NCBI RefSeq assembly: GCF_006345805.1
Contig: NC_043009.1
Coordinates: 22,134,001-22,198,000 of the forward strand
Direction: 5' to 3'
Length of the DNA: 64,000 nt
DNA from: Octopus sinensis
Taxonomy: Eukaryota
A program made the position numbers and the translations under genes. This document shows, in pieces, positions 2,391 through 62,572 of the stretch (position 1 is its first letter; every line of letters starts with the position of its first letter). The notes under the pieces are model-generated. The model saw nothing but the letters and a program-made list of their open reading frames with translations, was not told the DNA's origin and ran no database searches.

Positions 2391-2441
2391 TTTGTCAGTG
2401 ATCAGGTTGCAGTCTCAAAGCGACAAAAATATTTTGGCAAA
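2391..2441 (+). ncRNA. Minimal type I hammerhead-like motif, G3-C8 core, G12A defect (mirror copy on - strand at 2326-2376)
   Basis: tttgtca GTGATCA g gttgc agtctcaaa gcgac AAAA atat TT tggcaaa: 7-bp stem I, 5-bp stem II, palindromic stem III. Confidence 0.6.
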
Positions 2442-2920
2442 AGACATGTTGAGGCAAGTGAAATTGAAATCAAATTCAATGACTGGCATCCATGCTAGTG
2501 GAGCGCTAAGAGCATCATCCGAACGTGATCGTTGCCAGATCAGCTAACTGGCTTCTGTGCTGGTGGCACATAAAAAGCACCATTCGAGCGTGATTTTTAC
2601 CAGTGTCACCTTACTGGCACGTGAAAAAATATTCGAGTGAGGTTGTTCTCAGTGCTGCTGGACTGGCTCTTGTGCATGTGGAATGTAAAAAACACCATTT
2701 GAGCATGGCCATTGCCAGTACCGCCTGACTGGCCCTTGTGTCAGTGGCACGTAAATGCACCCACTACACTTTCGGAGTGGTTGGCGTTAGGAAGGGCATC
2801 CAACAGTAGAAATTCTGCCAGATCAGATTGCCTGGTGCAGCCATCTGGCTTGCCAGTCCTCAGTCTAACCGTCCAACCCATGCTAGCATGGAGAGTGGAT
2901 GTTAAACAATGATGATGATG
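2442..2920 (+). mobile_element. Non-autonomous RTE 3'-tail element
   Basis: Repeated gtggcac-taaaaagcac modules, gtggttggcgttaggaagggcatcc motif and (GAT)n tail, all shared with the RTE 3' UTR at 42570-43200. Confidence 0.8.
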
Positions 2921-3011
2921 AAATTTAAATTTAAATGTTGAAGTGAATCTAGTGATTTTTGTGTGTTTTTTAAATGGTTTATAAACACTTTCTATGCTGC
3001 AATTGTTTATA

Positions 3012-3057
<46 letters not shown>

Positions 3058-3060
<3 letters not shown>

Positions 3061-3896
3061 AGACCAGGCAGGACAAGTGAGCCCAGCCCACTTATGAATG
3101 CCTTTCCTCCCTTGGACACAAAGACCGGTTGAGGCAAGCGAAGTCGATATAGAACCTCATCCGACGACAGACACCCATCCCAACCCCCCATGCTTGCGAA
3201 GACATGTTGGGGCAAGCGAAATCGAAATCGAAACCGAATTGAACCAGCCAGGATCCCTGGCCTGGTGGTACGTAAAAAGCACTATCCGACTCGGGGCCGT
3301 GGCACGTAAAATACTCCAATGCGACCGTACGACAGGCACCCATGCCAACCCCCTTTGCTTGTGAAGACATGTTGGGGCAAGCGAAATCGAAATCGAATTG
3401 AACCAGCCAGGATCCCTGGTCTGGTGGTACGTAAAAAGCACTATCCGACTCGTGGCCGTGGCACGTAAAATACTCCAATGCGACCGTACGACAGGCACCC
3501 TTGCCAACCCCCTTTGCTTGTGAAGACATGTTGGGGCAAGCGAAATCGAAATCGAATTGAACCAGCCAGGATCCCTGGTCTGGTGGTACGTAAAAAGCAC
3601 TATCCGACTCGTGGCCGATGCCAGCACCGCCTCGACTGGCTTCCGTGCCGGTGGCACATAAAATACACCAATCTGACCGTGGCCGTTGCCAGCCCCGCCT
3701 GGCACCTGTGCAGGTGGCACGTAAATAGCACCCACTACACTCACGGAGTGGTTGGCGTTAGGAAGGGCATCCAGCTGTAGAAACATTGCCAAATTAGACT
3801 GGAGCCTGGTGCAGCCTTCTGGCTTCCCAGAACCCCGGTCGAACCGTCCAACCCATGCTAGCATGGAGAACGGACGTTAAACGACGATGATGATGA
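3058..3896 (+). mobile_element. RTE 3'-tail element with internal ~120-bp tandem repeats
   Basis: gaagacatgttggggcaagcgaaatcgaaatcgaa... recurs at about 3198, 3363 and 3522. Ends in the shared RTE tail and (GAT)n. Confidence 0.8.
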
Positions 3897-4880
3897 TATA
3901 TATATATTGGATGAAGTGGTGAAGAAAGATTATCGGATGCTGAGCCTAACTGAGGAAATGACAAGGGACCATGGGATGTAGTAATTTGCTGTACTTGATA
4001 AGACACATCAAACTAAGCAATATCATTATCTTCCAAACATACAGGCTTGTCCTTTCAGATGCTGGTGCCACTTACAGAGCACTTGTGCCAGTGCTGCATA
4101 GATGCACCCATGCTGGTGGCACATGAAAAGCGACCACCACACACTTATGTGGTTGGTGTTAGGATGGGCATCCAGTCGTAGAAACCATGCCACAACAGAC
4201 AGCTCCTTGTCAAACCATCCAACTCATGCCAGCATGGAAAGTGGATGTTAAATGATGATGATGATGACACATCCTCACAGGGGTGACTATAGGTGCAGGC
4301 ATGGCTGTGTGGTTAAAAAGCTTGCTTCATATCTTTGTGGTCTCAGGTTCAGTCTCACTGTGTGAAACTTCATGCAAGTGTCTTTTATTATGACCCTGGT
4401 CCAACCCAATAACCGTCTAAATTCTTTAGTGCCCGCAAGGGGTTACACACAGAGGGGACAAACAAGGACAGACAAACGGTTTAAGTCGATTACATCGACC
4501 CTAGTGTGTAACTGGTACTTAATTTATCGACCCCAAAAGGATGAAAGGCAAAGTCGACCTCGGCAGAATTTGAACTCAGAACGTAACGGCAGGCGAAATA
4601 CGGCTATGCATTTCACCCGTCATGCCGCTTTTTCTGAATATCTCCTTGTCTTAATATTGTGATAGTTGTGAGAGTGTCACTGACATACAAGCAATGTCAT
4701 TCATTTCTTATCTTAGATACTTGGCTAAAGGCAAATTTTACCTTACTTGGAGACAGGAAGAAAATCTACCTCCAGAACTTCCATTTGACCCATGCAAGCA
4801 TGGAAATGTTGGACATTAAACTGATGGTCAATATTTTGTGTGTATGTATTTGTAAGTTAGTTGTGCCTCTTGCTTTACAT

Positions 4881-5106
4881 TCAACTCTTTAGCATTCAGA
4901 CTACTCTGTAAAATAAAGCTTCTCTATTCACATTGTTTTGAATTCACCGTGCGTTATCTTGTAGCTTCAAGATTTTGAAGATGTGATAGTTTATTTTTAG
5001 AATGACATCATAGGATCGGTGTGTGAGGCTGGATCTGGGTAGTCTGAATGTAAAATAGGTAGAATATCTGAGCCAAATATGACTGGTTTAAATACTAAAA
5101 GGTTAA
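4881..5106. mobile_element. TTAA-type (piggyBac-like) MITE
   Basis: Ends tcaactctttagcatt ... aatactaaaaggttaa. Homologous copies at about 11060-11227, 27856-28910 and 53492-53721. Confidence 0.65.
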
Positions 5107-5307
5107 GAAGGATATATCTTGATAGTATTCAAGTGAAACATTGGACTGCCGGTTTGCAGCCAGTATTAAGTCTGACCTTCTGTCTATTTGAAGCAGGTCA
5201 TCTGTGTGTGTGTGTGTGTGTGTGTACAAATGTGTATATAGGTTTCTTGTGATATTTACAATTATTATTGTATGTGTAATAACTAATCTATTTATGTGTA
5301 TTTGTAG

Positions 5308-5504
5308 GTCTGTCGAGATATTTCTTCCTCCACATTTACAGTTACTGTGTACGATAAATATTTTCTCTAAAATCATCAATTGTATCAGCTGGCACCCTTT
5401 ATACACCACCAGCTACAACATGATGTCTACCTGCTCCAATTGGTTAGCTATAGGCTCCAATGATTCTGTTGTACATGTTGTCGACCTCACTATTGTCATT
5501 AAAG
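5308..5504 (+). CDS. GEMIN5: Gemin5 internal coding exon (WD40 repeats)
   Basis: tgtag|G ... AAAG|gtatgc. Translates SVEIFLPPHLQLLCTINIFSKIINCISWHP...WLAIGSNDSVVHVVDLTIVIK, resembling the remembered human Gemin5 IEIF..PNLKLICTI...ISWH...ASGSNNAVIYVHNL. Confidence 0.9.
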
Positions 5505-5980
5505 GTATGCAACCAATTTCCTTTTGCAATTTTGTGCTTTCTCCGCTCCTCTTGTTCACAGCTTTTATTCATCCCCAATTATACTAGAATCTGCTGTTCA
5601 TATGGGAGCCTTTATACTCTCGCTTGACATGCTTGAAATAGCAGCAAATTAACCTAATCAGACTCTAACTAAATATAAAAAAATATATATGTAATAATAT
5701 TTTATTAGCTTAAAACTTATAAGTGATCACTATGCCTTGACTAAGATAAAGAGTCTAATATTGGGGTGTATAAGCCCTGGAGGGAAAAAGTAGGGTTTAC
5801 CATACACATGTGTATGCTAAACTCTACCTTTTTCCATCGCTTATAAGCTTTAAGCTTATAAAATATTATTATTTACAGATTGTAAAGTTTGGCACTGACT
5901 ACCAAATAATCACACACACACACACATGTGTGTTCTGCTGTTTCTATCTATATGTGTTCTATCTGTTTCTTTATTATCAG

Positions 5981-6160
5981 TCGCCATGATAGATCGGTAG
6001 CCACTACACACATTTTTTTTCTCTCCTTGTTTCTTTCTGTGGTAGAGCGTAGGCTTGAAACGTTAAAGACTTTTTCAATTCCTGAGCGTGATACTAATAC
6101 ATCTGTTTGTTTTCTACACTACCTGTCTTCGTCTTTTGTTTTTTCCTTGAATTCTCCCTA
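5981..6160 (+). mobile_element. Short (TA)n-tailed element with degenerate hammerhead-like motif (6032-6069)
   Basis: tcttt CTGTGGT a gagc gtag gctt GAAA cg TT aaaga. Homologous to 62430-62640 on the - strand. Confidence 0.55.
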
Positions 6161-6218
6161 TATATATATATATATATATTTGAAAAAGGAGATGTGGAAC
6201 ACGAGTTGTGATATATAA

Positions 6219-6528
6219 AAAAAGGAAATGAAGAAAATGCTGACAAAATAATTTAAGTAAGGGAGAGTGTATTTAATTAGGTGAAAGTTCTTTTTACCGG
6301 TTGCGCATTTGTTATGCTTATCAAAAGATATTTTTTTAAGAGAGATAGAGTTCCTTTCTGATAGATTTTTTTCTAAAAAAATCTATCAGAAAGGAACTCT
6401 ATCTCTCTTAAAAAAATATCTTTTGATAAGCATAACAAATGCGCAACCGGTAAAAAGAACTTTCACCTAATTAAATACACTCTCCCTTACTTAAATTATT
6501 TTGTCAGCATTTTCTTCATTTCCTTTTT
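6219..6528. repeat. Perfect palindrome (154-bp arms, 2-nt centre) carrying a hammerhead-like motif on each strand
   Basis: 6219-6372 is the reverse complement of 6375-6528. The + arm contains TTGATAA gcat aacaa atgc GCAA ccgg TA (6423-6452). Flanked by TA runs. Confidence 0.9.
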
Positions 6529-7025
6529 ATATATATATATATATATATAATTATAATAAAGCAACAGATAGAACAGTGTACAATGTAGTTCTAGAAATAT
6601 AGATCATCAATAAGACAAGATGGTCAAGGGTGGAACTTCTGCTCAGTTAGAGTGGACTTGGTGCTCTAAACAACTTGAGTTACTTTTTTGTGAAGAGGCC
6701 TTAAGAATTGCTCTACCTAACTATCTCTCTGTTACCCTAGCTGGGTTTTTACTGTCGCAGCAACTGACACCAAAGTAGAAAGTGAAAAGAATGTGTTTAT
6801 GTTCGTGTGTGTGTGTGTGTGTGCGCGCATGCACATTTGGAAACATCCAGGAAGGTTTTCTATGGCCACATACTTGTTCTGTGCCTTCACTTTTCCAACC
6901 TACTAAACACACTTCCATTTACTACTCCTACCAACTACTTTTTCCACTATTTACCTATTTTTGAAAGTTCTTTGTTCATACCAGAACTCCATAGATTTCA
7001 AATGATGTTTTTATTGAAATTTCAG

Positions 7026-7171
7026 AGAAGGTTTCAGACAGCAACGAAATAGTAATAATCACTGAGAGTCTTCGCAGCCTGGAAGGTCACAGTAAAAGAA
7101 TCACTGGTCTGTGTTGGAGTACGCACAATGAAGGTCACCTAGTCACGATTTCTTATGATAAAACTGCTGTG
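7026..7171 (+). CDS. GEMIN5: Gemin5 internal coding exon (WD40)
   Basis: ttcag|AG ... GTG|gtaagt. Phase matches the previous exon. Translates EKVSDSNEIVIITESLRSLEGHSKRITGLCWSTHNEGHLVTISYDKTAV (GH...W...SYD WD40 pattern). Confidence 0.92.
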
Positions 7172-9193
7172 GTAAGTTGTCGTCACCCTTTGGAATGTGT
7201 TTTAGTTGTATAACCCGAGCTTTTTAAGTGTTCTTTCTTATGGTCCTCCTGTTTTATCCTGCCCCTCTCCCCTCCATATACTCTCTTCCGCATCTCCATT
7301 CACTCCAGTTCATTATTCATTTGTTACTATATCCCCATTACCTCTCCATCCCTGCATTATAAAATGTTAATTGGGTGCTAAAAATTGCTGCTAATATTTT
7401 TGGGAGACTGTCTTGTATTTGCTGGTTTCAGAACTGCAAGTCTATTGCATCCCTGCTTTTGGAAACAAGAAGATATATTTGAAGAATATTTGATGCTTTT
7501 ATGTTTACATAACTAAAGGAATATTAGCCAATTTTGTAGAATTGCACAGAGTTGTAGTCGGAGGTGCATGGCTTAGTGGTTCGGGTATTGGATTCATAAC
7601 TGTAAGATTGTGGTTTCAATCCCTGGACCGGGCGGTCTGTTGTGTTCTTGAGCAAAACACTTCACATTGCTCTTGTCCACTCTGTAGGAATGAGTTTAGC
7701 CTGAAGAGGGATGGGCTCTGCCAGGCTTTCTCTCCCTAGAGTCACTGCATGACTGCAGTGCCCCAACGACCCCCAAGGGGTTAAGGGATTTGTCAATTGT
7801 CAATAGAGTTGTAGTAGAATGGCATGAAATTGAAGCACAATATATGACAGGCTTTGCTAAAGGTGTAATTTGCTTGCAGTCCACCACAAAAGCATAACTG
7901 AACTTTTTGACATGTTGTGTGGCCTTTGTAAGCAAAAGGCTCATCCACACAATATCACTTGGTTCCTGTTCTTCACATAAACACGTCCAGGCTGGGAGAT
8001 TATTGACTCACTTCAAAATTGTTGAGGTTGGTAACAGGAAGGGCATTCAGCTATTGAACATCTTCTTGTCTGATACGTGCAAGCATGGAAAAGTAGACAT
8101 TAAAATGATAAGGTGATGATGATAATGCTGAGGACCCTGTCACTGCTGACTTTTATTGTTTACTGATTTCTAGAATTGCTGATACTGGCACATTAATGCA
8201 CTGGCTTCAGAAGAAGAAAAGTTGGTAAAAACACTAAACTTCATCATCATAATCATTTAGTGTCTGTTTTCCATGCTTGCATGGGTTGGACAGTTTGCGA
8301 GGAGCTGCACCATGTTCCATAGTCTGTTTTTGGCTTGGTTTCTACAGCTGAATGCACTTCCTAATGCCAACCATTTTACAAACTGTACTGGGTGCTTTTT
8401 ATGTGGCACCATCAAACAGTGCATCATTACCAGTGCTTTTAACATAGCACCATCACTCGTGCTTTAAACTTGCTATCTTCAATTTGATTTCTCTGCCGAT
8501 CCTCATGTATGGTCATGAATGTTGGGTATTGACCAAAAGGGTACACTCATAGATACAAGCAGCCAAAATTGGGTTCCTCCAAAGGTTCTCTAGAATAATG
8601 TTACTTGACAGAGTGCATAGCTCAGAGATCTGGGAATCTCTCCAGGTCAAGCTGTTGCATCTCCAAATTAAGAGGTCACAACTCTGGTACCATGGACGTA
8701 TGTTTAGAATGTTACAGGAATGAATGGTAAAGGTTGATTCTTCAAGTTGAGCCAATTGGCAGGAAACCTAGGGATAGAGCAAGAATTTGATGGTTGCTGC
8801 TTAATATCCATAGTCTCAGATGGTCGTCAGGTTTGGGAATCCAGTCAGAAAGTCTGTTAGTTACTTCTGATAGGACTCTATGGAGAAGATACCCTAGGAT
8901 TCTACCTCCACAAACCACTCGTGAATAACAACCAGAGAAAATGGATGGGTGGCCAAATCTCAAAGAAATGAAAGGCTTCTGTTTGAAGTAGGTCAAGCAA
9001 TGGCATAAAGACTTCCATGCTGGCTTATGAATGACAGTCTTTAAGGGGGTGGTGAACGGCAGATTTTAGGATATCTTTCAGGGCAACAATGTATTTTGTT
9101 TTTGACCAGGTGGCTGTTTCAGGATAGTGAAAAGTATTGGTATAAGTAAGAGTGAAAAAAAAAACAACCAATTAATTTTTTTTTTATTTTCAG

Positions 9194-10052: not shown

Positions 10053-10092
10053 TCTTGGTGAAGCATGTGCTGTATAAGTTGTATAGACATTT

Positions 10093-10310: not shown

Positions 10311-10354
<44 letters not shown>

Positions 10355-15480: not shown

Positions 15481-15518
<38 letters not shown>

Positions 15519-15590
15519 CTATAAGAAAAATCATTTTATTTCTTTAAGAAATATTGTTTAATTCTATTTGCTTATTTATTTAACTATTAT

Positions 15591-15690
15591 TGTTAACCTG
15601 AAGAGTGACTAAAATTTTAAATTGAATTGTTTTTCGATTAAATTTAATTGTAATTCGAATTTAAATTATAGCCATGAAACGTTTCTTTAC
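15591..15690 (+). ncRNA. Degenerate hammerhead-like motif with long stem II in a (TA)n-flanked element (15515-15800)
   Basis: CTGAAGA gtgacta...(AT-rich hairpin)...tagccat GAAA cgtttc. Stem I is weak. Confidence 0.4.
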
Positions 15691-15797
15691 TTATATATTG
15701 TTTATTCATTTTTGTACTTTTTGTGATCTAGTTATGTTTTTAAAAAATATATTTTATTTTTTATTTATTATTTGGTTTATGTCTATATTGGTTTTTC

Positions 15798-30502: not shown

Positions 30503-30538
<36 letters not shown>

Positions 30539-30544
30539 TCAAAA

Positions 30545-33045
30545 TTTTGCATTTCTCACATCTTGTACACAATACCGCATTTGTCATTACCTTCCTCCCA
30601 CATACACCACATGGATCCACCTTACTCACTAACACTTCTCCTTCCAACCTGCTCACCATCACCTCTGTCTTCCCAAGATTTACCTGCAAACCTTTGCTTT
30701 CAAATGCCTCCTTCCATTTCCAAAACTTCACCCTCAATCCCTCCATCATCTCACTCATGAGAGCAAGGTCATCTGCATACAGTATCTCCATTATCAATCC
30801 CTCTCTTGCACTCTCTGTCACCACATCAACCACTATTGCAAACAACGGTGACAACACAGATCCCTGATGCACAGCAACTTTCACTGCAAACTCCTCCAAC
30901 AGCTCTGACTCAAATCTAACTCTTGTCATTACTCTGTCATACAAACTCATCACTACTCTCACTATTACCTCTAGTTTACCTGTCTTCCTCAACACCCACT
31001 CAATCACCTTCCTTGGAACCCTATCAAATGCTTTCTCCAGATCAACGAAGCACATGTACAACTCCTTCTCTTGATATTCCTCTTGTAATCTCTTTACAAT
31101 GAACACTGCATCTATTGTCCCCCTTCCTGGCATAAAACCAAATTGCATCTTGTCCACATCCACCCCTTTCTGAATTCTTCTCTCCAACACCCTTTCCACT
31201 ATCTTCATTTCATGCTCCAATAACTTCACTCCCCTATACGCCCCACAACTCATCACATTCCCCTTGAAGATTGGTACCACCACACCTAGTGCTCAATCAT
31301 CTGGCATTCCTCTTCCATCCAGCACACCCTGGCAGAGCTCCACCACAACAATCCCTATCTCTCCACTTGCAGTTATCATTTCCACACTTCAGAGGGACCA
31401 GCTGACTTTCTTGTTTTCATTTCCTTCATTGCCTCCACTACTTCTTCCCAACTGACCCTCTCCCCTGGCCCCTGCACCACAGCAACTTCCACCCTCTGAT
31501 CCCATTCATTTTCCTTGTTCGTAATTTCATAATTCCCTCCATATGCTCCTTCCATCAGTTCCCCTCATGCATCTCTTCCCTCTTTTTTCATTGATTTAGT
31601 AAACCTAAACACTCTATCTGGGTTCTCATCCAGCCTGCTCAACCCCTCCTCAGCTTCCTTCCTCATAGATCTCGCAACCACCCTCTTTGCACGATTCTTC
31701 ATATTATTATACTTGGCTTTCATTTGGTCAGTCCTATTATTATACAAAGCTTTGTGCACCTCCTCCTTCGTTGTTATCACATCCCTCACCTCCTTGTTCC
31801 ACCACCACGTATCTCCTCGATCTCTCCTACCTTTCATCCTTTTACACACTTCCTCACATGCCTTTAGTACTCCTTCTTTAAAAGACTTCCACAAATCTGG
31901 TGCATCAATGCTTACCAACTCCTCAAACCTTGCTCTTGTTTCTTCTTCAGTTTCCACACCTTTCTCCTCTCACCCATTCCCTTTCTCATACACTTAAATT
32001 TCCTCTTATCCAAGTCAACAACCACCAACCTGTGCTGCAATTCCCCTGGTATTGTCTTCATATCTCTCAGATACTTTCTGTTTTTCCTGCCAGCCAACAC
32101 GAAATCAGTCTCTGTCTCATTCCCTCCTACTCTAAAAGTCACCTTCATTTTCTCTGTTTTCCTAAACCACTTATTCGCCACACACAACTCTTTCTCATCA
32201 CGAAACTCCAATAGCATCCTTCCTTCTACATTTCTCTCCCCAATTCCATTTCCCCCATGCACACCCTCAAAGCCCAGGATCCATTTCCCAACAGGTCCAT
32301 TAAAATCAGCCTTGCCCAAAACTAATTCATCTACCCTATGTAAGTCCCACTGATTCACCATTTCATCAAAGAACTGTTCTTTCTCAGTGATCCCTCTTCC
32401 ACTTTGCAGACCATACCCAAAAATCACCCTCACCACTTCTTCCTTAAATGCTAACACTACTGTCATCACTCTGTCAATCTTTCTCCTGACCTCCACCGCC
32501 TTCTCACAGATTTCTTCCTTCACCAAAACTCCCACACCTCTAGTCCCCTTGCTATTTCCCGACCACCACAACTTGTACATTTTCCTCTTGATCCCCACAA
32601 ATCTTGCACCCTGGTCCCTCCACCTAGTCTCCTGTATACAGCACACATCCACCCTCCTCTTCCTCAATTCATCACACACCTCAGTTCCCCTTCCACGCAG
32701 ACTGCCCACATTCCAACTTCCCAACCTCACACTAGGCTTCTCCTCAGGCTGCCGGCCATCATATGGCAAGTCATGTTTGCACAACCCAGGATGAGAGTTT
32801 GCCCCTTCCTTTTTGAGTTGGGTGGCTGGCTGGCGCCCATTCTCCTTTGCTATCATGAGGCTTTCTCGGAGCTGGATTTTCGACGGGGAGCAAGCCCTTG
32901 CTTACCCCCAACCACAGTTTCTAAACATGAGTGGTTCTGAGACCAAGGCCTCGACCACGATTTTTAAGAAATGTGGTGGGAAACTAGCTCAAGAAGGCAG
33001 GGACACTACTCCCTGAGACCTCTCTTGGAGCCCCGCCTATCTGAT
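30545..33045 (-). mobile_element. Second-family RTE LINE with 5' UTR, APE and RT; frameshifted, 3' end missing
   Basis: ORF 31912-32856 (GSWNVGSL, CIQETRW), 31565-31957, and 30534-31283 (QFGFMPGRGTIDA, HQGSVLSPLF, LYADD). Confidence 0.92.
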
Positions 33046-39859: not shown

Positions 39860-39964
39860 TATTGTTGTGGCGAGAGTCATTGACACTCCTGGCAGATATT
39901 ATCTATAAAATATATGTTAGGTTGGCAACTAAGTTCTCACCTTTTTTAAAATTTATATACACAT

Positions 39965-40534
39965 GTATATAAATTTTCTACTGGGAATGACCAATTTAAA
40001 AAATCTGCTGGATCTCACTCATAAGAGAATCTTAAATTGCTTCTAAACTTTATATTTGGATGGACTCATTTTAAACTCTGTTGGACTTTTGGACTTTACT
40101 CATACAATATTGGAATATTGCATATATATCATTATGCCTAAAAAATGGATTTACAACTTCAATACCCACACATATCATGCTTCTATTTTCTTTCCTCCAC
40201 CTCACTCTCCATTTTGTATCACATCTAAACTAACTATGACTTAACTATCCTCTCACACCGTCTCCGATGAAGGGATATAATTAATAAATATCCTAGAAAC
40301 AGCTGTAAGGCCTATTTATAAATGCTCTAATATCTACACAGCCTTGATTTTTTATCTTATTACGCAAAACATTCTTATATACACATGCTGACATAGAACC
40401 AACGTTGAACCCTTTATTCGCAATATTACCGAATCTGGAACTTAACTATGGTCTGTCTATAGCACTTATTCAGCATTACCTGACACCTTTGGGTCTCAAT
40501 GACACCATTATCTCTTATAACCTCAACTTCTCAC

Positions 40535-40538: not shown

Positions 40539-40578
<40 letters not shown>

Positions 40579-40580
<2 letters not shown>

Positions 40581-41158
40581 AGAATCACTCTACATAAGGA
40601 GCAAATCCGTTTCCCGCAATAGACAAATTCCTCTTAGTGAACACATAGAAAAATGTGCAGGTAACATCAAACCAAATTTCACTGTCTTCCCTTTCTACCA
40701 GTGCAAAGACGCAATCTCTCAATTAGAATGCTTAAATAAAGAAGCTTTTTTCATTGAAAAATACAAAACACATCTTAATATGCACGCATAACCAACTTTT
40801 ATATTTTCATATATTCCATTCACGATTACATCACTGTACGTAAATTCCCTACTAAACAAGGTTTTTTTAAAAACCTGTCTCTTTTCTGTACACATATTTA
40901 ATCCCCACCCATTACCGAACCTGAACAGTTATCTCCCTTACACAACAATAACAATAATAACAACCAATTACCTCCCTTTATTTGTCTACTTGTGAAGTCA
41001 TTCATTCCTGAATTTCATCACACACAACATGGACCAAATTTCTTAAGAAAAAATATATATTCAAATAAATTAAACATAATATCATGAATAGCGATAGCGA
41101 AACCGGTCGATATATTAAAACCATGTAAGTGTGCATATTTTCCTTTTTAATTTCTTAT
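40579..41158 (+). mobile_element. Penelope-like element 3' remnant (GIY-YIG C-terminus + 3' region)
   Basis: RQIPLSEHIEKCAGNIKPNFTVFPFYQC...LNKEAFFIEKYKTHLN (H...E..FI..Y...LN pattern of PLE GIY-YIG ends). (TA)n on both sides. Confidence 0.75.
41079..41113 (+). ncRNA. Minimal type I hammerhead, A3-U8 core
   Basis: atatc ATGAATA gc gata gc GAAA ccgg TC gatat. Confidence 0.7.
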
Positions 41159-41252
41159 ATATATATATATATACACATATATACATATATATGTATATAT
41201 ATATATACATATATATATACATATATATATACATATATACATATATATATAC

Positions 41253-42491: not shown

Positions 42492-45400
42492 CATTGGGTC
42501 ATTCCATAAATAATGTGTTGTTTTATACTTTTTATTTTTCAAAATTAAGATAAACAAAGTTCTTTTTTATCATCATCATCATCATCATCATCATCGTTTA
42601 GCGTCCATTTTCCATGCTAGCATGGGTTGGACGGTTCTACTGGGGTCTGTGAAGCCAGAAGGCTTCATCAGGCCCAGTCAAATCTGGCAGTGTTTCTACG
42701 GCTGGATGCCCTTCCTAACGCCAACCACTCTGTGAGTGTAGTGGGTGCTTTTTACGTGCCACCCGCACTGGTGCCAGACAGAGCTGGCAAACGGCCACGA
42801 ACGGATGGTGCTTTTTATGTGCCACCGGCACGAGGATCAGGCGAGGCTGGCAACGGACACGAAACGGGGTGGTGCTGGCAACGGTCGCGAAACGGAAGGT
42901 TCTCTTACATGCCACCGGCACTGGTAACACATCTGCAATTTCCATTGATCAATTTCGATTCTGATCCTCACTTGCCTCAACGGGTCTTCACAAGTAGAGT
43001 TTCGACATGCCACCGGCACTGGTAACACATCCGCAATTTTGCATTGATCGATTTCGATTCTGATCCTCACTTGCTTCAACACGTCTTCACAAGTAGAGTT
43101 TTGTGTCCCAAGAAGGGAAGGTATGCATACGTAGGCTGGCTCCATCCCATGTAGAAGGCCACGGGTTATGGACTCACTTGTCCTGCCGGGTCTTCTCGCG
43201 CACAGCACACTTCCAGAGGTCTCGGTCTCTAGTCATTTCCTCAGTGAGACCTAAAGTTCGAAGGTCGTGCTTCACCACCTCGTCCCAGGTTTCCTGGGTC
43301 TACCTCTTCCACAGGTTCCCTCAACCGCTAGGGTGTGGCACTTTTTCACACACAACTATCTTCATCCATTCTCGCCACATGACCATACCAGCGCAAACGT
43401 CTCTCTTGCACACCACAACTGATGCTTCTTAGGTCCAGCTTTTCTCTCAGGTACTTACACTCTGCCGAGTGTGAGTACCGACATTACACATCCATCGGAG
43501 CATACTGGCTTCATTTCTTGCGAGCTTACGCATATCCTCAGCAGTCACGGCCCATGTTTCACTGCCATGTAGCATGGCTGTTCGTACACACGCATCATAC
43601 AGTCTGCCTTTCACTCTGTGCGAGAGGCCTTTTGTCACCAGCAAGGTAAGAGCTCTCTGAACTTTGCCCAAGCTATTCTTACTCTAGCAGTTACACTTTC
43701 AGCACACCCACCCCCCCTGCTGACTTGGTCACCTAGGTAACGGAAACTATCAACTATTTCTAGTTTTTCTCCCTGGAAAGTGACGGAAGTTGGTCTCAGA
43801 GCATTTTCAGTGTTTATTGTTCCTGAGCATCTGCCACATACAAAAACCATCTTCCTAGTTAGCCTTCCTTTGACATTGCTGCATCTCTTATGTGTCCATA
43901 GCTTACACTTGGTGCATCTTATAGAGTTTTCTACCTACACCTTTTCTACAGATCGAGCAGGGCCATCTACCTGAAGGCGTTTGTGATTTGTCTACCTTCC
44001 TACTGATTACGACTTTGGTTTTAGCTAGATTGACTCTGAGGCCCTTCGATTCTAATCCTTGTTTCCACACCTGAAACTTCTCCTCCAGTTCTGATAGCGA
44101 CTCAGCAATTAGAGCAAGGTCATCAGCATAGAGGAGCTCCCAAGGGCATCCTGTCTTGAATTCCTCCGTTATTGCCTGGAGGACTATGATAAATAGGAGG
44201 GGGCTGAGTACTGAGCCTTGGTGGACCCCAACCTCTACTTGGAATTCTTCACTGTACTCATTTCCAACCCTCACGCTACTAGCAGCGTCCCTATACATGG
44301 CCCGCACAGCTCTCACTAACCATTCATCTATCCCTAGTTTCCTCATTGCCCACCAGATAAGGGATCGGGGGACCCTGTCGAAGGCTTTCTCCATGTCAAC
44401 AAAAGCCAGGTACAGGGGCTTATCTTTGGCTAGGTATTTCTCCTGCAGCTGCCTTACCAGGAATATAGCATCAGTAGTACTTTTCCCTGGCACAAACCCA
44501 AACTGCATCTCATCTAAACTAACTCTCTCTCTAATTAGTTGGGCTATGACCCTCTCCGTAACCTTCATCACCTGATCCAATAGCTTGATACCTCTGTAGT
44601 TATTTGTATCTAGGGCATCACCTTTACCTTTGTAGCAGTTGACTATTATACTGCTACACCAGTCATTGGGTATGACTCCTTTGTGTATCACCTGATTAAC
44701 TATACGGGTGACTAGGCTATAGCCGACACTATCAGACATTTTGAGCATCTCTGCAGTGATTCCTGATGGGCCTGGGGCTTTTCCTGTCTTCATGCTTCTA
44801 ATTGCCTTAGCTACCATGGAACTATCAACTCGGATAGCTGGTCCCTCTGTTGGGTCAACATTCGGCAGACTCTCTTTATCCCATTCATTTTCTTCATTCA
44901 GCAACCTTTCATAGTGGCATCTCCAAACCTCTCTCTTTGCATCCTCATTTAGCGCAAGTGAACCATCTTCCATGCGAACACACTTCTCTCCTACCACATC
45001 ACAATTCTCTCTCACACACTGTCTTGCAACGCGAAACACCTCCAGTCTTTGGTCCTCACGGCGCAGAACATTGGCAAATTTTTTCTTATCTGCTTCCCCT
45101 CTGGCTAAATAAACCTGTCTCCTAGCTTCTCTTTTGGCAGTCTGATACAATTCCCTGCTACCCCCATTTTTCTAGACCTTCCAAGCCTGTCTCTTTTCTC
45201 GAATAGCCCTGTCTACAATATTGTTCCACCACTACGTTATTCTAGGTCGAGAGGGGACTTTGCACCAGCCACAGATCTGGTCAGTGGCTCTCAGCAGGTT
45301 GTCCCTTAGAAACGTCCAGCTGTCTTCTACCCCCTGTGATGCTCTATCCCCTTCTACTTCGTCAGAGGCTTCAAGTAATATTTAATCTAAATATATTCTC

Positions 45401-47730: not shown

Positions 47731-48439
47731 TCCATCCATCCATAGCTACAATCATCTGTCTTTATGTTCTGAGTTCAAATTCCCCTGAGGTTGACTTTGC
47801 CTTTCATCCTTTCGAGGTCGATAAATTAAGTATCAGTTGTGTACTGGGGTCGATCTAGTCAACTGGCCCCTCCCCAAAAATGTCAGGCCTTCTGCCTAGA
47901 ATAGAAAAGGATATAGATATACATAGATATACATACCCACAGAAATGGAAAAACATGGACACAAAAATTACGACATTGATAATCATAATCATGACCATTG
48001 CACTCTTTTTTATTTCTTTTTTGGTTTTCCTACCATTTTTCAATGATTTAGTCAGTCATTGGAAGAACGGTAGTTCCAAGGACAGTTAGGGTTCAAATCC
48101 CATGGGCAAGTTTTGACATTTTTCCATCCAAGGTGGCTTTTATTTTAAAACTCAGTATTTACTCACTATTATTTATAGTTCTATCTATTTCAAGTTCCAC
48201 TGCTGAAAACGATTTATTATCTGTTGAATTTTCTAAACTTTTATGATGTAAATAATTAAATAAGAATGGAATTACACCAGACCATTAAACCCCATCTTAA
48301 GTGATGGGAAATATTTACAATGTTTACGTCTATGTGGAATCTCAATCTGTTTGGTCTCCATCTGTCATCGGGTGTCCTATTCCTAGATGTGTGCTTGCCA
48401 TAATACAACTACTATGACTGCTGCTACTACAGGCGTATC

Positions 48440-50143
48440 GATTGAGGACCCTTATCAACAGAGTCAGTTATTTCCCGAGGCCTTTTCAACTATTTTCAAA
48501 CAAGTTGATGGTCGTGAACCCCCTCCATTTGATAGATTGGTACCTCCAATGCTTAGATTGGTCATCACTCAGGACGAAGTCGAACGCGTTATTCAAGGCC
48601 TCGATGTCAAGAAGGGTCACGGCCCTGACGGCATACACCCACGGGTTATCAAAGCGTTGGCTCCGGTCATCTGCAAGCCTTTAACACATCTATTCAATAT
48701 GTCATGGGCGACGGGTGTTATACCTGCAGACTGGAGAACAGCGATAATCTGCCCAATTTTCAAGAAAGGGAGCTGTGAAGACCCGCTTAACTACCGACCG
48801 GTTTCCCATGCTTCAATAATCAGCAAGATGTTCGAAACCATCCTTAAGAAAAGTATGATGCGCCACCTCCAAAACACAGCCTCTATTTCTAATTCCCAAC
48901 ACGGCTTCGTGCCGAAGAGATCATGCTTGACCAACTTACTGGTAATGGAGGAATTGGTGACGCGTATCCTGGATGATGGTGATGCTGTTGACATCGTTTT
49001 ATTGGACTTTGCCAAAGCTTTTGACTTGGTAAACCACCGCCTATTACTTGTCAAGCTTCAAGCATTTGTTTGTTTTCATCCAGATATTGTACGATGGGTT
49101 GGTGCCTTCCTCTCAGATCGCTCCTTCCAAATCCAAGTTAATGGTTCGCTGTCCAATGTCTCCAGTGCGAGCAGTGGCGTGCCTCAAGGTTCAGTGCTTG
49201 GGCCCTTATTGTTTTTAGTCTTCATAAATGACTTGCCCGACGACCTCACGCAACACACCCTTCTATTTGCCGATGATGTCAAACTGGTCGCTCCTCGCAG
49301 TGATATAGAGGATCTTCGTCGATGCCTCCACCAAATTTGGAGATGGTCTAATGAATGGGACCTGTGTCTGAACTTGTCAAAGTGCTGTCATCTGCCTGTT
49401 GGCTCTTCTCCTGCAACTCAACTTGATTTCGAGCCGGGTCGTCTGCTTCTGGAGAGGACCGACCAGGTAAAGGAACTGGGTACCTTGGTGGATTCTTCCT
49501 TTTTGCCTTCGGCCCATGTGCGTCCATGCTGCCAACAAAGCATGCGGAGTTCTGTTTTTGATTCGATGGTCATTCGGAATGCTCACAGCAGCCATATTCC
49601 TACCGCTCTATGTCACGCTGGTGAGACCCATATTGGAGTACGGGATTCATGCCTCTTCTCCTTATCTCCTCAAAGACATACAGCATCTCGAAAGAGTCCA
49701 GAAGCTGGCTACCCGCATGGTTCTTGGTCTCAAGCATTTGTCTTATAAAGAAAGGCTGAAGACGCTCGACCTTTATTCTCTAGAAAAAACGCTGCCGCGG
49801 TGGTGATCTCCTTCTTGCTCACATCATAAGCGGAAAGTGTAACCTCTCGAAAGAGCTGTTCTTCACTCCTGCTCCAGAGCGTCGGCTGCGGGGTCACTCT
49901 GAAAAGCTCTATCTGCAACAATTTCATCTCAATCGAAGGAGAGGGGCTTTCTCCGTCCGGGTTGCAGTTCCGTGGAATAAGCTGCCCGACGAGATAGTGA
50001 AGATGCCGACGACCGCTCGGTTCAAAGTCTCCCTTGAGCACAAGTGGCCTGATCTCTTTACATGAACACCACCCTGTACATAACTCCATGTCCCCTTATA
50101 TGGCCTTGCTTTTCGCTTTTTGAGCCAAAAAATTAACTAACTA
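48440..50143 (+). mobile_element. CR1-group LINE, 5'-truncated, frameshifted
   Basis: ORF 48387-49748 (GPDGIHPRV, NYRPVS, QHGFVPKRSCLTNL, DFAKAFD, GVPQGSVLGPLLF, LFADD). Continuation LYVTLVRPILEY...LERVQKLATRMV. Tail aattaactaacta. Confidence 0.93.
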
Positions 50144-53834: not shown

Positions 53835-53872
<38 letters not shown>

Positions 53873-54116: not shown

Positions 54117-54188
54117 GGTCTCATGGTGTAATGGTTGGCACTCTGGACTTTGAATCCAGCGATCCAGGTTCAAATCTCGGTGAGACTT
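54117..54188 (+). tRNA. tRNA-Gln(TTG), variant or pseudogene
   Basis: GGTCTCATGGTGTAATGGTTGGCACTCTGGACTTTGAATCCAGCGATCCAGGTTCAAATCTCGGTGAGACTT. Anticodon arm CTGGA-CTTTGAA-TCCAG is intact; A-C mismatch in the T stem; T5 run about 15 nt downstream. Confidence 0.85.
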
Positions 54189-54552: not shown

Positions 54553-55063
54553 AAAATAATAGTTAACGCCATACTAATATGGCATTCTTATAAAAATAAG
54601 AATAAAGCTGTCCGCTTATTAGCTCCATGAGGCCATCGCCTTAAGTTAGCTATTTGATACACAAACTGTATCCATATAACCTTCGAACAAGGGAGGTCAG
54701 TCGCTCCACACTACTTGACCGGCAGCTACAGACGCGTTTCGGGGTATTGCCCCTTTTCAATGCAGCGTAGCCAGCCAGTAGGTGTCGCTTCCGACAATCT
54801 CTGTTCGATGGTTTTATTTACCTAGTTTCGGTGGAATACATCCACTTGTTTTCAATAATAGAAATATTAAAATTACTAAGTCTCTCTAAAAGAGAACAGC
54901 GGCAGCGTTCCCTGAAAATAATAGTTATCGCCATACTAATATGGCATTCTTATAAAAATAAGAATAAAGATGTCCGCTTATTAGCTCCATGAGGCCATCG
55001 CCTTAAGTTAGCTATTTGATACACAAACTGTATCCATATAACCTTCGAACAGTTTGTGTATCA
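54553..55063 (-). mobile_element. Retrozyme-like / Penelope pLTR-like unit: 362-bp monomer with 137-bp terminal redundancy
   Basis: 54553-54689 repeats at 54915-55051. One HHR per unit. A 14-bp fold-back at 55050-55063 and (TA)n at the other end. Confidence 0.8.
54725..54766 (-). ncRNA. Intact minimal type I hammerhead ribozyme, U3-A8 core
   Basis: On - strand: gctgca TTGAAAA gggg caata cccc GAAA cgcg TC tgtagc. Confidence 0.85.
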
Positions 55064-55965: not shown

Positions 55966-56052
55966 ACCATATTTTAACATGTATATACACAATACTTTAA
56001 CAAGTATATACACTGTATTTTAATAAATGTATATTCTAAATTGTAATACATA

Positions 56053-56266: not shown

Positions 56267-56410
56267 TATTCTATATTTTAACAAGTATATATACTCTATT
56301 TCAACAAGTGTATATATACACAATATTTTAACTGTATAAACACTGTAATTTTAACAAGTATATACACTGTATTTGAAGAAGTGTATACACAGTGTTTTAA
56401 CAAGTATATA

Positions 56411-56790
56411 CTCTTTTACTTGTTTCAGTCATGCTGGAGCACCACCTTTAGTCAAGCAAATCGACTCCAGGACTTATTCTTTGTAAGCCTAGTACTTATT
56501 CTATCGGTCTCTTTTGCCGAACCTCTAAGTTACGGGGACGTAAACACACCAGCATCGGTTGTCAAGCGATGTTGGGGGGGGGGAGACACACAAACACATA
56601 CACACACATACATATATAAATATATATATGTATGTATATATATATATATATATATATATACATACATACGTTAGGCTTCTTTCAGTTTCTGTCTACCAAA
56701 TCCACTCACAAGGCTTTGGTTGGCCCGAGGCTATAGTAGAAGACACTTGCCCAAGGTGCCACATAGTGAGTCTGAACCCACTCCTGCGCC
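56411..56790 (-). mobile_element. SINE family A
   Basis: Matches other copies. Confidence 0.8.
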
Positions 56791-58299
56791 ACATATATAT
56801 ATATACATATTAAATTGGAAAATCTTTGTAGTTACACTATTGATTGATCCACAGAGCAGAAGTTGATATAAACATTAATTAAATTTTTTAACAATTTGCT
56901 TGACTCCAAATCTTTGATTTTGGGTAGAAAAGCTAATTCACCTAGTGTTGTTTAATTGATATAACATGTATTTTTGTTCTAATAATAGCAATGTTTGTGC
57001 AGAATGACTCGAGCAATTCTTCAATCTATAATTAATGTCTTCTAATTGTGTCTTAATGCATTGTCAGAGATGAATTTAGAATCGGATTGCATTCTAAAAA
57101 TATAGGTTAAATATTTGGATTTACAGAATGAAAAATGTGCTTCGGCATTATTGTTTTGGATACCTTTCTGAATAACCAGCCTCATCCAATTTGTTGTTGC
57201 TTGATGTAACTAATCAGATGTTAGAAATCTGATTTGACTGATTTTAAAATGGTTTGCCTGAATTTAGTCTTGGAGCTGTTCTTTACATACCATTATAAAG
57301 AGATGAATTGGGTTGGGTTACGACAGGTGAAGGCTGGTAGGTTGGATCTAAACCATCTAGTTTGCTGTTCAATATATTTTCATATATCTGGAAGTTTTAG
57401 TTAAGATTTTAAACTAAAGTTGCTAAGCAGGGCTTGGTGTCCATATAGAAGCCTTGTTTTTCTTTTCTTTTCTGACTTGAATCAGTCATCAGACTGCTGC
57501 CATGCTGGGGCATCGCCTTGATGAAATTTTAATCAAATGAATTGAACCCAGTACTTACAAATTTTTTAAAGCCTGGTACTTATTCTGTTAGTCTCTTTTG
57601 CTGACCCACTAAGTTATGGGGATGTAAACAAGCCAACACAAGCCAATACTCTTTACTCCCTTTACTTGTTTCAGTCATTTTGACTGTGGCCATGCTGGAG
57701 CACCGCCTTTAGTCAAGCAAATCGACCCCAGGACTTATTCTTTGTAAGCCTAGTACTTATTCTATCGGTCTCTTTTGCCAAACTGCTAAGATACGGGGAC
57801 ATAAACACACCAGCATCAGTTGTCAAGCGATGTTGGGAGGACAAACACACACACATATGGGATAGTGTATTGCTGAGGCTCAATGCTCAAAAGGTGCTTC
57901 TTACGTGCCACCAGCATGGGTGCCAATTATGTGACACCAAGCATCGGCCATGACTATGATTTCACTTGGCTTAACAGGGAGTTGCCAAATACAGATCAAG
58001 TTTGTTTTGCTCACTTTTAATTGATCTCACCACATAAACGATTCACTTGTAATGAAAGCATGCTATAATGCAACTTGATGCATTATGTTTAAACAGACAC
58101 GTCTTATTGCACTCTTCACAAATAAACAACACTGATAGTGTCTGAGCAAAATGACCGAAGCATGACATATAAAGAGTGCAGGACTTATTTGGTAATTCCA
58201 AATGTATGCTTTAGGTCTCATCAACAAAAAATTTGAAACTACTATTGGCAGACTAAATGCTTCTTGTTTATCTTTCCCATCTAAGCTGTAAAAGAAATA

Positions 58300-58515
58300 A
58301 TCTTTTCTGTTATAGGCACAAGGCCTGAAATTTTGGGGGAAGGGGTAAGTCGATCGCATCGACCCCAGTACTCAACAGGTTCTTAATCTATTGACCTCGA
58401 AAGAATGAAAGGCAAAGTCAACCTCAGCGGGATTTGAACTCAGAACGCAGCGGCAGACGAAACACCGCTAAGCATTTCGCCTGACATGCTAATGATTCTG
58501 TCAGCTCACTGCCTT
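58300..58515 (-). mobile_element. SINE family C
   Basis: Family consensus on - strand: gtgagctggcagaatc...ttctgagttcaaat...gactttgcctttcat. Copies at 4440-4630, 23117-23520, 30250-30480, 47750-47910 and 58780-58950. Confidence 0.75.
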
Positions 58516-59019
58516 GTAAAAGGAATAATAAAATCATCCACACACATATGAAAACAAACTGGAGAGCAGCCTGTTGGAATAGACCCAAATTTGTTACATT
58601 GCACTCAAAACATCTATAATGGTTGTATGATGGGATATGTGCAACATGATCCCAGAAAAGACTAGAGTATAATATGTTGAAGGTTTTCGGAACACGAGAG
58701 TGAAGGAATGTGATCTAGTGGTTAGGGTGCTTCACTTATGATTGCAAGATCATGGTTTCATATTTCTTGATTGCCCACATGGGGCTAAACATAGAGAGGA
58801 CAAACAAGAACAGACAAAGGGATTAAATCGATTACATCGCCCCCAGTGCGTCACTGATACTTTATTTATCGACCCCAAAAGGATGAAAGGCAAAGTCAAC
58901 CTTGGTGGAATTTGAACTCAGAACGTAACGTTTCTCCCAGCTTGCCGCAAGATCATGGTTTCAATTCCTGGACTGGGTGGTGTGTTGTATCTTTGAGCAA
59001 TACATATATACACATATAT

Positions 59020-59559
59020 AAGATGGGCTTCTTTCAGTTTCTATCTACCAAATCCACTCACAAGACTTTGGTCGGCCCGAGGCTATAGTAGAAAACACTT
59101 GCCCAAAGTGCCACGCAGTGGGACTGAACCCAGAACCATGTGGTTGGTAAGCAAGCTACTTACCACACAGCCACTCCTGTGCTGTGATGGGGAACAAACC
59201 ACAGACACACACACACACACATGACAGACTTCTTTCAGTTTCCATCTACCAAACCCTCTCACAATTCTTTGGTTAGCCCAAGGCTATAGTAGAAGATGCT
59301 TACCCAAGGTAACTCACACCTCACACAGTGGAACTGAACCAGGATCATGTGGTTGGGAAGCAAACTTATTACCATACAGCCATGCCTGTGCTATTGAGTG
59401 GCTGTGTGGTAAGTAGCTTGCTAACCAACCACATGGTTCTGGGTTCAGTCCCACTGTGTGGCACCTTGGGCAAGTGTCTTCTGCTATAGCCCCGGGCCGA
59501 CCAATGCCTTGTGAGTGGATTTGGTAGACGGAAACTGAAAGAAGCCTGTCGTATATATG

Positions 59560-59608
<49 letters not shown>

Positions 59609-59810
59609 ATATATATATGTATGTATGTGTGTGTGTTTGTGTGCTGGTGTGTTTACATCCCCGTCACTTAGCGGTTCGGCAAAAAGAGACCGATAGAATA
59701 AGTACTGGGCTTACAAAGAATAAGTCCCGAGGTCGATTTGCTCGACTAAAGGCGGTGCTCCAGCATGGCCGCAGTCAAATGACTGAAACAAGTAAAAGAA
59801 AGAAAAGAAA

Positions 59811-59812
<2 letters not shown>
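59020..59812. mobile_element. Head-to-head SINE family A cluster
   Basis: - strand heads at 59020-59180 and 59222-59390; full + copy at 59397-59812. Confidence 0.85.
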
Positions 59813-59853
<41 letters not shown>

Positions 59854-59887
59854 CATACATACATACATACATACATACATACATACA

Positions 59888-59918
<31 letters not shown>

Positions 59919-61276
59919 GTGTGTGTGTGTGTATGTGTATATATATCATCATCATCATTTAATGTCTGTTTTCCATGCTGGCATGTGTTTTATACATGGT
60001 CTGATCGATAAGTATCAGGACTGTTGCCATAGCAACGAAGCTAAAGTATGCCAAGTGAAGCTGCTTGGCACAGATTGACCTTAAACTCTGCTGTGAATGG
60101 ACACTAAGTTTTAACATTCTAGCTCACTTCTGCTGAAAACTGACAACACTGCCTGTATGATAGTGATGCTCATTTACAGCTATTACATGATTTTAAGAGA
60201 AGGCCACACACACAATATTCTTTCTTAATCGAAGACAGCAAGGTGTGATTTGAAGGATATTTAGCTGCTGTTACTAGTAGGTCGAGCAAGTATTTATAAC
60301 TCCAATGTAGTGATGCTAATATTGGTGTTGAAGACAAGAATCAAAATATTCATTAATTTAATTACTCAGAGAACCATCACATGCAAATAAACTTCAAGTG
60401 TGCTTCATTAAATTGGAAAATATACAATTGAACAATTTTCAATAATTTCAAAAATTCTTCGCTTTAATGAGATCTACCTAGACGTAACTAAATGTCAAGG
60501 CCTGCTATTGTTGCTGCTGCTTGGCCACGACCACCTCATTACTGTCAACAATAATGCTACAGCAGTCATCACCACTAATACCATCGCTATCAGTACCATT
60601 TCCATGGCCACTGCCATTGCCACCACCGCCACTAATAGCATTGCCATCACCACTGCCACCGTCACTATCTCCACCACCACTGTGTAAACAACACTACATC
60701 CTTACCATTAACTATATACCATTTCCATAACTGCCTGCCTCTTCTACTCCTACCACTACCACCAGACACATCCCTCCTCCTACCGGCCCTTCTATGCTTA
60801 TTGTTCATCTTGTTAGAAATAGCAGCCAAGTGTCCCTGTCTAATCAATGTGTAGATAACAGATGTGGTGGCCATGGCTGGAATTTCTTTGGTCATCATAG
60901 GCTTATTCAGTCAGGGCTGAGTTGGCAGGGGTTAAAATACATGATCATCACATTGCCAACATCACTGTCACCGCCAACACCACCATCTTCATATCAACTA
61001 CCACCACCTCCAGAATCACATCTTTCAACAACTACTACCACCACCACTGTCATCTTCATACCAACTATCACCATCATCACCATCCCATCCATCACCACCA
61101 CCACTATCTCATCCACCACCATAATTGTTGTTTGAAATTCAAAATCAAATTTCAGGATGAGCAGGCTGTATTTTTATACCCAGTTAACATTTCTTAAAAC
61201 TAACAATTTTAGTGTTTAATTAACTGTACTAATGACATGTTTAGCTTACCACAATACATAGACAAGGCACAGAGAG

Positions 61277-61314
<38 letters not shown>

Positions 61315-61892
61315 GGAGGACAGAGAGACTGTGTGCAATCCTTCTTCCTCTCCTCATATTACTCCTCCTCCGACACCGCCACTGTTGCTGACATCACAAC
61401 AGCAAGAGAGTCGCCATGCATCCTGCAATTAGCGATTGTGGGTACCGAAGACAATGATGTGATGATTATAGTGATGGTGGTTGTGATAAGGATGGTGGTG
61501 GTTGTGATGATGATGATGTTGATAGTGATGATGATACTGGTGATGAAGATGATGATAGTGTTGATGGTAGTGATTGCTTTCTTTCTTTCTTAATAATATC
61601 TTTTATTGGTTGCAAGGACCGAAGATTTTGGGGAAAGTACAAAGATAAGATACAAAAACAATATAAAAAAGACAGTAGGGGATGGGATTTATATTGAGTT
61701 AAGAGGCAGAATTAACAATATATTTAAAGAAGAACAACCTGTATTAGGAGATGTTGCTTGTCATTAATTTGAAAAGGGTTTGTTTTATATATCTTCGTTA
61801 ATTAACGACAAAACTAGTGATAGTGAACAATTTCTGTGTGCATGCATATATTCACAAATATACACATGCATGCACATATATATATGTGTGAG

Positions 61893-61936
<44 letters not shown>

Positions 61937-61937
<1 letters not shown>

Positions 61938-62265
61938 GTGCAGGAGTGGATGTAAGGTAAGAAGCTTGCTTTCCAACCACATGTTTCTGGGTTCAGTTCC
62001 ACTGCGTGGCACTGTAAGCAAGTGTTTTCTTCTATAGCCTTGCGCTGACCAAAGCCTTGTGAGTGGATTTGGTAGACAGAAACTGAAAGAAGTCCGTCAT
62101 GTGTATATGTGTATGACTTTGTTTTCTGTATTTGTCACCCCGTCACTGCTTGACAACTGGCATTGGTGTGTTTGTGTCCCCACCGTAACTTAACGGTGTG
62201 GCGAGGGAGTCCAATAGGACAAGTCATGGCAGTGCTCCAGCATGGCCGCAGTCAAACAACTGAAG
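61937..62265 (+). mobile_element. SINE family A
   Basis: Matches other copies. Confidence 0.8.
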
Positions 62266-62533
62266 CATACTGCTAGCAATTTCTTTACCTTCTTTGGACT
62301 TTCTCGCTCTCTCCTTTCTGATGCTGAGCTATGCTCAAAATGTCAAACTCTCTTTTCATCAAACATCAAGCTAATACATTCCTTGTGTCTATCCTCTTGT
62401 TTGTTATTTTCATTTGTTTATTTGATTTGACTACACACACAGATAGTTGAAATTTATAGAAAAACAAAAAACAAAGACAGGTGTATGAACAACAAGCTGG
62501 TGTATTAGTTTGGTGCTCGGAAAAATGGCTAAA

Positions 62534-62572
62534 TCTTTTACGTTTCGAGCCTACGCTCTTTCAACAGAAAGG
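62534..62572 (-). ncRNA. Hammerhead-like motif with A6U core
   Basis: On - strand: cttt CTGTTGA aa gagc gtag gctc GAAA cg TA aaag. Confidence 0.5.

Follow-up and report, generated by a model that had tools for sequence, protein, structure and literature searches.

All four Watson-Crick versions of the hammerhead core 3-8 pair occur as family states in Penelope-like elements and related repeats of Octopus sinensis

The 64,000-nucleotide window analysed here (Octopus sinensis, NC_043009.1, positions 22,134,001-22,198,000; genome size 2.72 Gb) is repeat-rich, full of (TA)n, and carries copies of minimal type I hammerhead ribozyme motifs; the window copies are mostly decayed, and the state of the pair between core positions 3 and 8 is a trait of the repeat family to which a copy belongs. 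An earlier sequence-only reading of this DNA had proposed all four Watson-Crick versions, and C3-G8, U3-A8, G3-C8 and A3-U8 are all real as family states. We consider it likely that these motifs mark the ends of Penelope-like retrotransposons and of their non-coding derivatives, and that the fixation of one Watson-Crick pair in each family reflects selection for a cleavage-competent fold, with real cutting that is probably slow and may be assisted.

A strict descriptor (stem I - NUGANNA - stem II - GAAA - palindrome - UH - stem I'), which allows any base at positions 3 and 8, has two matches in the window, with cores at 41084 and at 54760 on the reverse strand, against a mean of 0.13 per shuffle in 60 shuffles; when a palindrome of at least 4 nt was required, 60 of 60 window shuffles gave no match. 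None of the 147 matches that an Rfam scan of the window gave at E up to 10 was to a hammerhead family. The six core heptamers singled out by the sequence-only reading (2398, 6423, 15598, 40264, 41084 and 54760) are all present, and every one belongs to a repeat family with more than 1,000 candidate copies; the attribution to minimal type I motifs of Penelope-like elements and to a tandem, retrozyme-like repeat was borne out as well. The features that carry these motifs in the window, together with a seventh family on which the end coordinate of that reading (62572) falls, are as follows:

2391-2441, forward strand: G3-C8 motif; core 2398-2404, stem I of 7 bp, a bulged G, stem II of 5 bp, palindrome AUAU, then UU
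2174-2375, reverse strand: inverted partner of the same short, non-coding G3-C8 element; core 2363-2369, also with G12A
6421-6454, forward strand: U3-A8 hammerhead-like motif; core 6423-6429, palindrome CCGG, then UA
6211-6538, no single strand: inverted pair of 3' ends (pseudo-long terminal repeat, pLTR) from a Penelope-like family that is young; a further core at 6318-6324 on the reverse strand
15517-15793, forward strand: 3' end of a C3-G8 repeat; core 15598-15604, long stem II
40260-40311, forward strand: C3-G8 motif with U4C; core 40264-40270, palindrome CAGCUG, then UA; the element spans about 39951-40381
40579-40791, forward strand: part of the A3-U8 Penelope-like element's GIY-YIG endonuclease, from its C-terminus
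41079-41113, forward strand: minimal hammerhead motif with A3-U8, intact; core 41084-41090, stem I of 5 bp, stem II of 2 bp, palindrome CCGG, then UC; predicted cut after 41108; the element spans 40578-41164
54725-54766, reverse strand: intact U3-A8 motif; core 54760-54754, stem I of 6 bp, stem II of 4 bp, palindrome CGCG, then UC
54553-55051, reverse strand: 1.4 units of a young 360-bp tandem repeat that holds this U3-A8 motif
62535-62571, reverse strand: C3-G8 hammerhead-like motif with A6U (CUGUNGA), from the seventh family, a further Penelope-like element

The full motif pattern, which the sequence-only reading had ascribed to each element, holds at the level of the families; within the window, only the copies at 41084 and 54760 among the six fit it as they stand. 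Three of the six break it. The 2398 copy and its inverted partner both have AAAA where the family has GAAA (G12A), and the copy is predicted to be dead; the 15598 copy has lost half of the palindrome and the cut site to an 8-nt deletion, the family being complete; and the 6423 copy shares with all near-identical copies of its family the replacement of GAAA by GCAA (A13C) and a stem I of only 2 contiguous bp. The 40264 copy fits with U4C, which is a family state; its stem II is bulged and its stem I reads GUCU/AGAC. A canonical minimal type I core is found in the copies at 41084 and 54760 and in the family states of 2398, 15598 and (with U4C) 40264; the window copies at 2398 and 15598 lack it, and so do the 6423 and 62571 families as such, which are hammerhead-like only.

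Each of the six window sites was searched against the whole genome, and the 30 best loci were taken out of 1,002 to 2,798 candidates per site. The family loci retained were those most like the window copy; among them, positions 3 and 8 read A-U in 35 of 38 and G-C in 44 of 46, the two C-G families kept their pair in 36 of 38 and 33 of 41, and the two U-A families in 40 of 40 and 38 of 38. A blind sample of 140 stretches of 10 kb (1.4 Mb, at round positions on 25 contigs), scanned with positions 3 and 8 free, gave 35 strict matches, of which 33 pair at 3-8 (C-G 22, U-A 6, G-C 5, A-U 0; unpaired, one C-A and one G-G), compared to 0.6 matches per shuffle. The enrichment of complementary 3-8 combinations that had been predicted is thereby observed, and the shuffled-sequence comparison that had been named as a possible refutation came out in favor of the motifs, which are far rarer in shuffled sequence (0.13 per window, 0.6 per 1.4 Mb). 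In a relaxed set, 39 matches of the blind sample formed 21 clusters, 20 of them with a paired majority (14 C-G, 5 U-A and 1 G-C) and one tied between U-A and C-A; the C-G clusters have common ancestry. CUGANGA accounts for 18 of the 35 strict matches, so that a search restricted to this heptamer misses about half of these matches and not clearly most, as had been claimed; a majority is missed only once the abundant A6U family is counted in.

Exact patterns were also run genome-wide with positions 3 and 8 free and with backward patterns as controls; the 3-8 states were counted by hand in the first 100 matches by position. The context of the G3-C8 family has 6,441 exact matches, with G-C in 93 of the first 100, and that of the A3-U8 window family has 363, with A-U in 91 of the first 100; both backward controls returned 0. 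The presumed older pair was absent among the double-changed copies of both families: C-G was found in none of 19 double-changed copies of the G3-C8 window family, and U-A was not found in the A3-U8 window family, which has one double-changed copy. Near-identical sisters in the ancestral state were sought for both families among these double-changed copies, and there were none. A generic pattern built on the CCGG palindrome, without U at position 3, has 1,493 matches (control 32); its first 100 comprise 70 A-U, 11 C-G, 1 G-C and 18 unpaired copies. Thirteen of these 18 are X-A8, which decay of the excluded U3-A8 families would lead one to expect. At least three families have A3-U8; compensatory changes set their stems apart, and their endonuclease ends are 50-63% identical to that of the window family. 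The lone G-C copy belongs to one of these families. The variants of the A3-U8 motif listed in the contigs of one sequencing run (at N7, in loop II, C17 to U, and on both sides of one stem I pair) fall on tolerated places; three further runs hardly covered the A3-U8 core, and in contigs matching the G3-C8 element the core was close to the contig ends.

Both purine-3 states coexist in a Penelope-like family outside the window (loci L324-L330, L334 and L340-L351), whose endonuclease ends are 51-60% identical to that of L321, a longer copy of the 41084 element. Its own pattern has 213 matches (control 0), and the first 100 divide into 58 A-U, 36 G-C and 6 other copies (1 A-C, 1 G-U, 1 A-G, 1 U-C and 2 G-G). 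Three G-C and three A-U copies have identical stems and flanks that are 88-95% identical; as far as aligned copies can tell, this is a direct compensatory switch between G-C and A-U within one family. In a tree of 14 of the 20 fetched copies, with positions 3 and 8 masked and with the 6 short-flanked copies and all other families excluded, the G-C copies lie deeper and the A-U copies form part of a young group with 82-85% bootstrap support. A rooted path from C-G through U-A and A-U to G-C was considered and dropped; the wider cross-family tree was weakly supported and the flanks were incomplete.

The stems of this clade covary along with the 3-8 pair. In 28 distinct aligned motifs, 90.2% of cells pair, compared to 26-43% in a control with slid partners. 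Two-sided changes are seen in 60 cells, where shuffles give 17.4 and none of 500 reaches as high; all 5 stem I pairs covary, and 7 of 8 pairs change on both sides, in line with compensatory changes in stems I and II. The 3-8 pair itself is A-U in 15, G-C in 10, U-A in 1 and other in 2. As a caveat, the 28 motifs are related rows chosen by pattern, and these figures do not amount to a probability. A proposed avoidance of pairing between bases 3 and 17 agrees with 11 of 11 G3-C8 rows (A17) and 17 of 18 A3 rows; it is contradicted by U3 with A17 in the 6423 family and in locus L184, and is kept as a lead only.

In the window, the 41084 motif lies 295 nt behind the GIY-YIG end; in L321, a single 635-aa frame contains a reverse transcriptase (RT) followed by a GIY-YIG domain, with a Cys-rich linker, and ends 285 nt before the A3-U8 motif. 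GIY-YIG scored 28.8 bits, above the cut-off of 22.6, and RVT_1 28.6 bits, below the cut-off of 29.6. The element appears to be a Neptune-like Penelope element, the Neptune label being taken from the Cys-rich linker, as described for Neptune-type elements (PMC8557442), and not from a tree. The 6423 family is linked through locus L139 to the GIY-YIG frame of L143, and its endonuclease end is 57% identical to that of the 41084 element; the two are relatives, and the description of the motif-bearing elements as unrelated fails for this pair. Another relative of the 41084 element, L029, has U3-A8 and the same tiny stem II. In all five families examined, copies have inverted partners and 3' ends that are paired or fixed in the Penelope manner, and the Penelope-type insertion pattern is present: an inverted, 5'-joined partner, (TA)n sites and two 3' end points. 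For the 2398, 15598, 40264 and 54760 families, no RT or GIY-YIG frame was found in the shared upstream sequence of the fetched loci. In L122, a locus of the 6423 family, the inverted partner copies start exactly at the predicted cut; this was seen at one locus.

With a length of about 170 or 230 bp, the 2398 element is short, and it is non-coding. Most copies start about 20 nt before the core; their 3' ends fall on either of two points that precede (TA)n, and extrapolation from 14 matches in 1.4 Mb puts their number at about 27,000. A common origin of this element and the coding family's G3-C8 copies is not supported; about 12 core letters are shared and the flanks do not match. The 54760 motif lies within a 360-bp tandem unit (in L059: period 360, 4.9 copies, 98% matches), and the stretch 54553-55051 has the form of a retrozyme that lacks long terminal repeats (non-LTR), in which non-coding units of 150-400 bp stand in tandem, each with a single type I hammerhead. 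Counted from the cut, its 3' ends cluster at +171 to +176 and at +233 to +236, as in a Penelope tail, and the repeat was found in sequencing runs of six organisms. Further tandem hammerhead-bearing units, with periods of about 535 and 575 bp, occur in L287 and L330. The A6U family, with a variable N7 and a 2-nt palindrome, is also present at window positions 6033-6060 (forward strand); it is very abundant (25 matches in the blind sample by hand count), and its motif stands behind GIY-YIG ends in five of its loci (L002, L183, L306, L102 and L283).

By established chemistry, a motif of this kind would cut after H17 once stem III has formed. In the mechanism that we favor, stem III would arise when the palindromes of two transcripts, or of two tandem or inverted copies, pair with each other; G12 would act as the base and the 2'-OH of residue 8 as the acid, whatever base stands at position 8, and the RNA would be cut after H17. 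Cutting would take place in dimers, and the protein of the element may aid it. Where two transitions suffice for a swap (C-G to U-A, G-C to A-U), the path would lead through a wobble pair; a step between pyrimidine and purine at position 3 would need a mismatch. Unconstrained co-folding of two copies predicts a dimeric hammerhead for 41084, 54760 and L350, and in part for L341; for five window families, the stem III duplex is predicted at -7.5 to -11.1 kcal/mol. Pairing between 3 and 8 is described as characteristic of the active core and as absent from ground-state minimal structures (PMC3884650). In the Penelope hammerhead of Anolis, single mutants at 3 or 8 are inactive, C3G/G8C partly rescues activity, and the element protein is required (PMC11167929).

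Several observations weigh against selection for cutting as the explanation. G3-G8 copies recur, with 2 among the first 100 matches in both the G3-C8 family and the mixed family; the independent swaps are few (a handful) and not one per copy, the copies being non-independent, and a single G-C to A-U change in the mixed family is not rejected (p-AU, the approximately unbiased p-value, 0.37). No dimeric hammerhead was predicted by co-folding for the short G3-C8 family, 40264, 6423, L029, L168 or L347; the predicted stem III duplex of the short G3-C8 family has only -0.2 kcal/mol, and the copies examined show no pile-up of 5' ends at the predicted cut. In a pairwise mutant scan of another hammerhead, 3-8 rescue was obtained only by the G:C swap (PMC9901934), and A3-U8 may be weak for this reason. 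An alternative is that the fold is kept as a binding or positioning structure for the RT/endonuclease protein, with the 3-8 pair retained for its shape and with cutting slight or irrelevant to transposition; among the observations in its favor, those on the anole element and on the A13C and A6U families also count against our own reading. Ribozyme mutants of the anole element leave in vitro insertion intact, and no RNA reads end at the cut (PMC11167929); minimal motifs are weakly active in vitro (PMC4209133); Naiads thrive without canonical hammerheads (PMC8557442); and the A13C family with its 2-bp stem I (6423) and the very abundant A6U family have been amplified despite damaged-looking cores. 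We nevertheless judge this alternative unlikely: G5, A6, A9, G12-A14 and NUH stay invariant while the stems turn over (letters that the search patterns themselves fixed), N7 and H17 vary as catalysis allows, and the 3-8 pair belongs to the active core and not to the ground state.

Neutral change offers another account, in which the swaps are accidents in a few master copies of inactive motifs that were then amplified, and the four-way panel results from chance and the choice of paired cases. It draws on the small number of independent events, on the three broken copies among six in the window, and on the lack of an ancestral-state sister for two window families. It is largely refuted and, in our estimate, quite improbable, as none of the 21 clusters from the blind scan with free positions 3 and 8 had mostly unpaired members, and all 7 clusters off C-G, one of them tied, went to paired states; moreover, neutrality predicts more single than double changes, and A3-U8 is kept across at least three families with compensatory stem differences. 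That such motifs arise by chance in repetitive, AT-rich DNA, as the missing Rfam hammerhead and some short stems might suggest, is scarcely credible and is refuted by the controls: shuffled sequence is nearly empty, backward patterns give 0 to 32 matches against 213 to 6,441, and the motifs have a fixed place behind GIY-YIG frames. Selection for a cleavage-competent fold retains our preference over these alternatives. A bolder version would have Penelope-like elements explore the whole Watson-Crick space of the 3-8 pair, with the first natural active G3-C8 and A3-U8 hammerheads, a recent G-C to A-U switch in one autonomous family, genomic proof of selection for cutting, and an element protein that props up weak A3-U8, A6U and A13C cores; we regard this as possible, though at present somewhat short of probable.

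Features of the window apart from these families include a tRNA gene with UUG anticodon (54117-54188, forward strand, 55.2 bits) and broken frames of the long interspersed nuclear element (LINE) type for endonuclease and reverse transcriptase, recognized by eye from translations at 538-2097, 30534-32901 and 43903-45171 on the reverse strand and at 48387-49748 on the forward strand.

Penelope hammerheads are weakly active in vitro, and in the one reconstituted system mutants had no effect on insertion. Against this background, natural covariation at a pair of the active conformation speaks independently for selection on catalysis, and the occurrence of G3-C8 and A3-U8 in one shared context offers a matched natural pair for a direct test. 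Descriptors such as CUGANGA or YUGANRA miss thousands of motifs; one G3-C8 family alone accounts for the 6,441 exact matches reported above. Natural G3-C8 and A3-U8, and the presence of both states in one family, are apparently new, and may have been described before: no natural example of either pair was found in the literature compared here, which leaves outside the largest survey (Lunse et al. 2017), where examples may be held, and Przybilski and Hammann 2007. The survey, by Lunse, Weinberg and Breaker, is said to cover Penelope-associated hammerhead variants with reduced stem III and dimer cleavage.

U3-A8 has already been published (PMC3088659, PMC4209133). The minimal hammerheads in the pLTRs of metazoan Penelope elements (PMC4209133) share with the octopus motifs the type I order, the short or absent palindromic stem III, the extra base after A9, G10.1-C11.1, a location behind an RT/GIY-YIG frame, neighbours in inverted orientation, numerous divergent families within a genome, and U3-A8 (in Schistosoma); they differ in that none of the 56 representatives in Fig. 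S3 of that study has G3 or A3, which are family states here and interconvert in one family, as A6U, A13C and U4C are also family states here. Perreault et al. 2011 (PMC3088659) have in common with our results the natural U3-A8 covariation and a natural U4C, and report in addition an A6C variant of low activity; for the 3-8 pair, the text of that paper on which this comparison draws names only U3-A8. Metazoan non-LTR retrozymes (PMC7229834; 10.64898/2026.07.22.740005) resemble the repeat at 54553-55051, known from DNA alone, in their non-coding tandem unit of about 360 bp with one type I hammerhead each; the octopus repeat differs in its U3-A8 pair, its 4-nt palindrome and its paired 3' ends of Penelope type. 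The Poseidon hammerhead of Anolis (PAc; PMC11167929) is likewise a Penelope hammerhead with two 3' end points (tail); the G3-C8 pair was engineered in that system, whereas in Octopus sinensis it occurs naturally, in thousands of copies.

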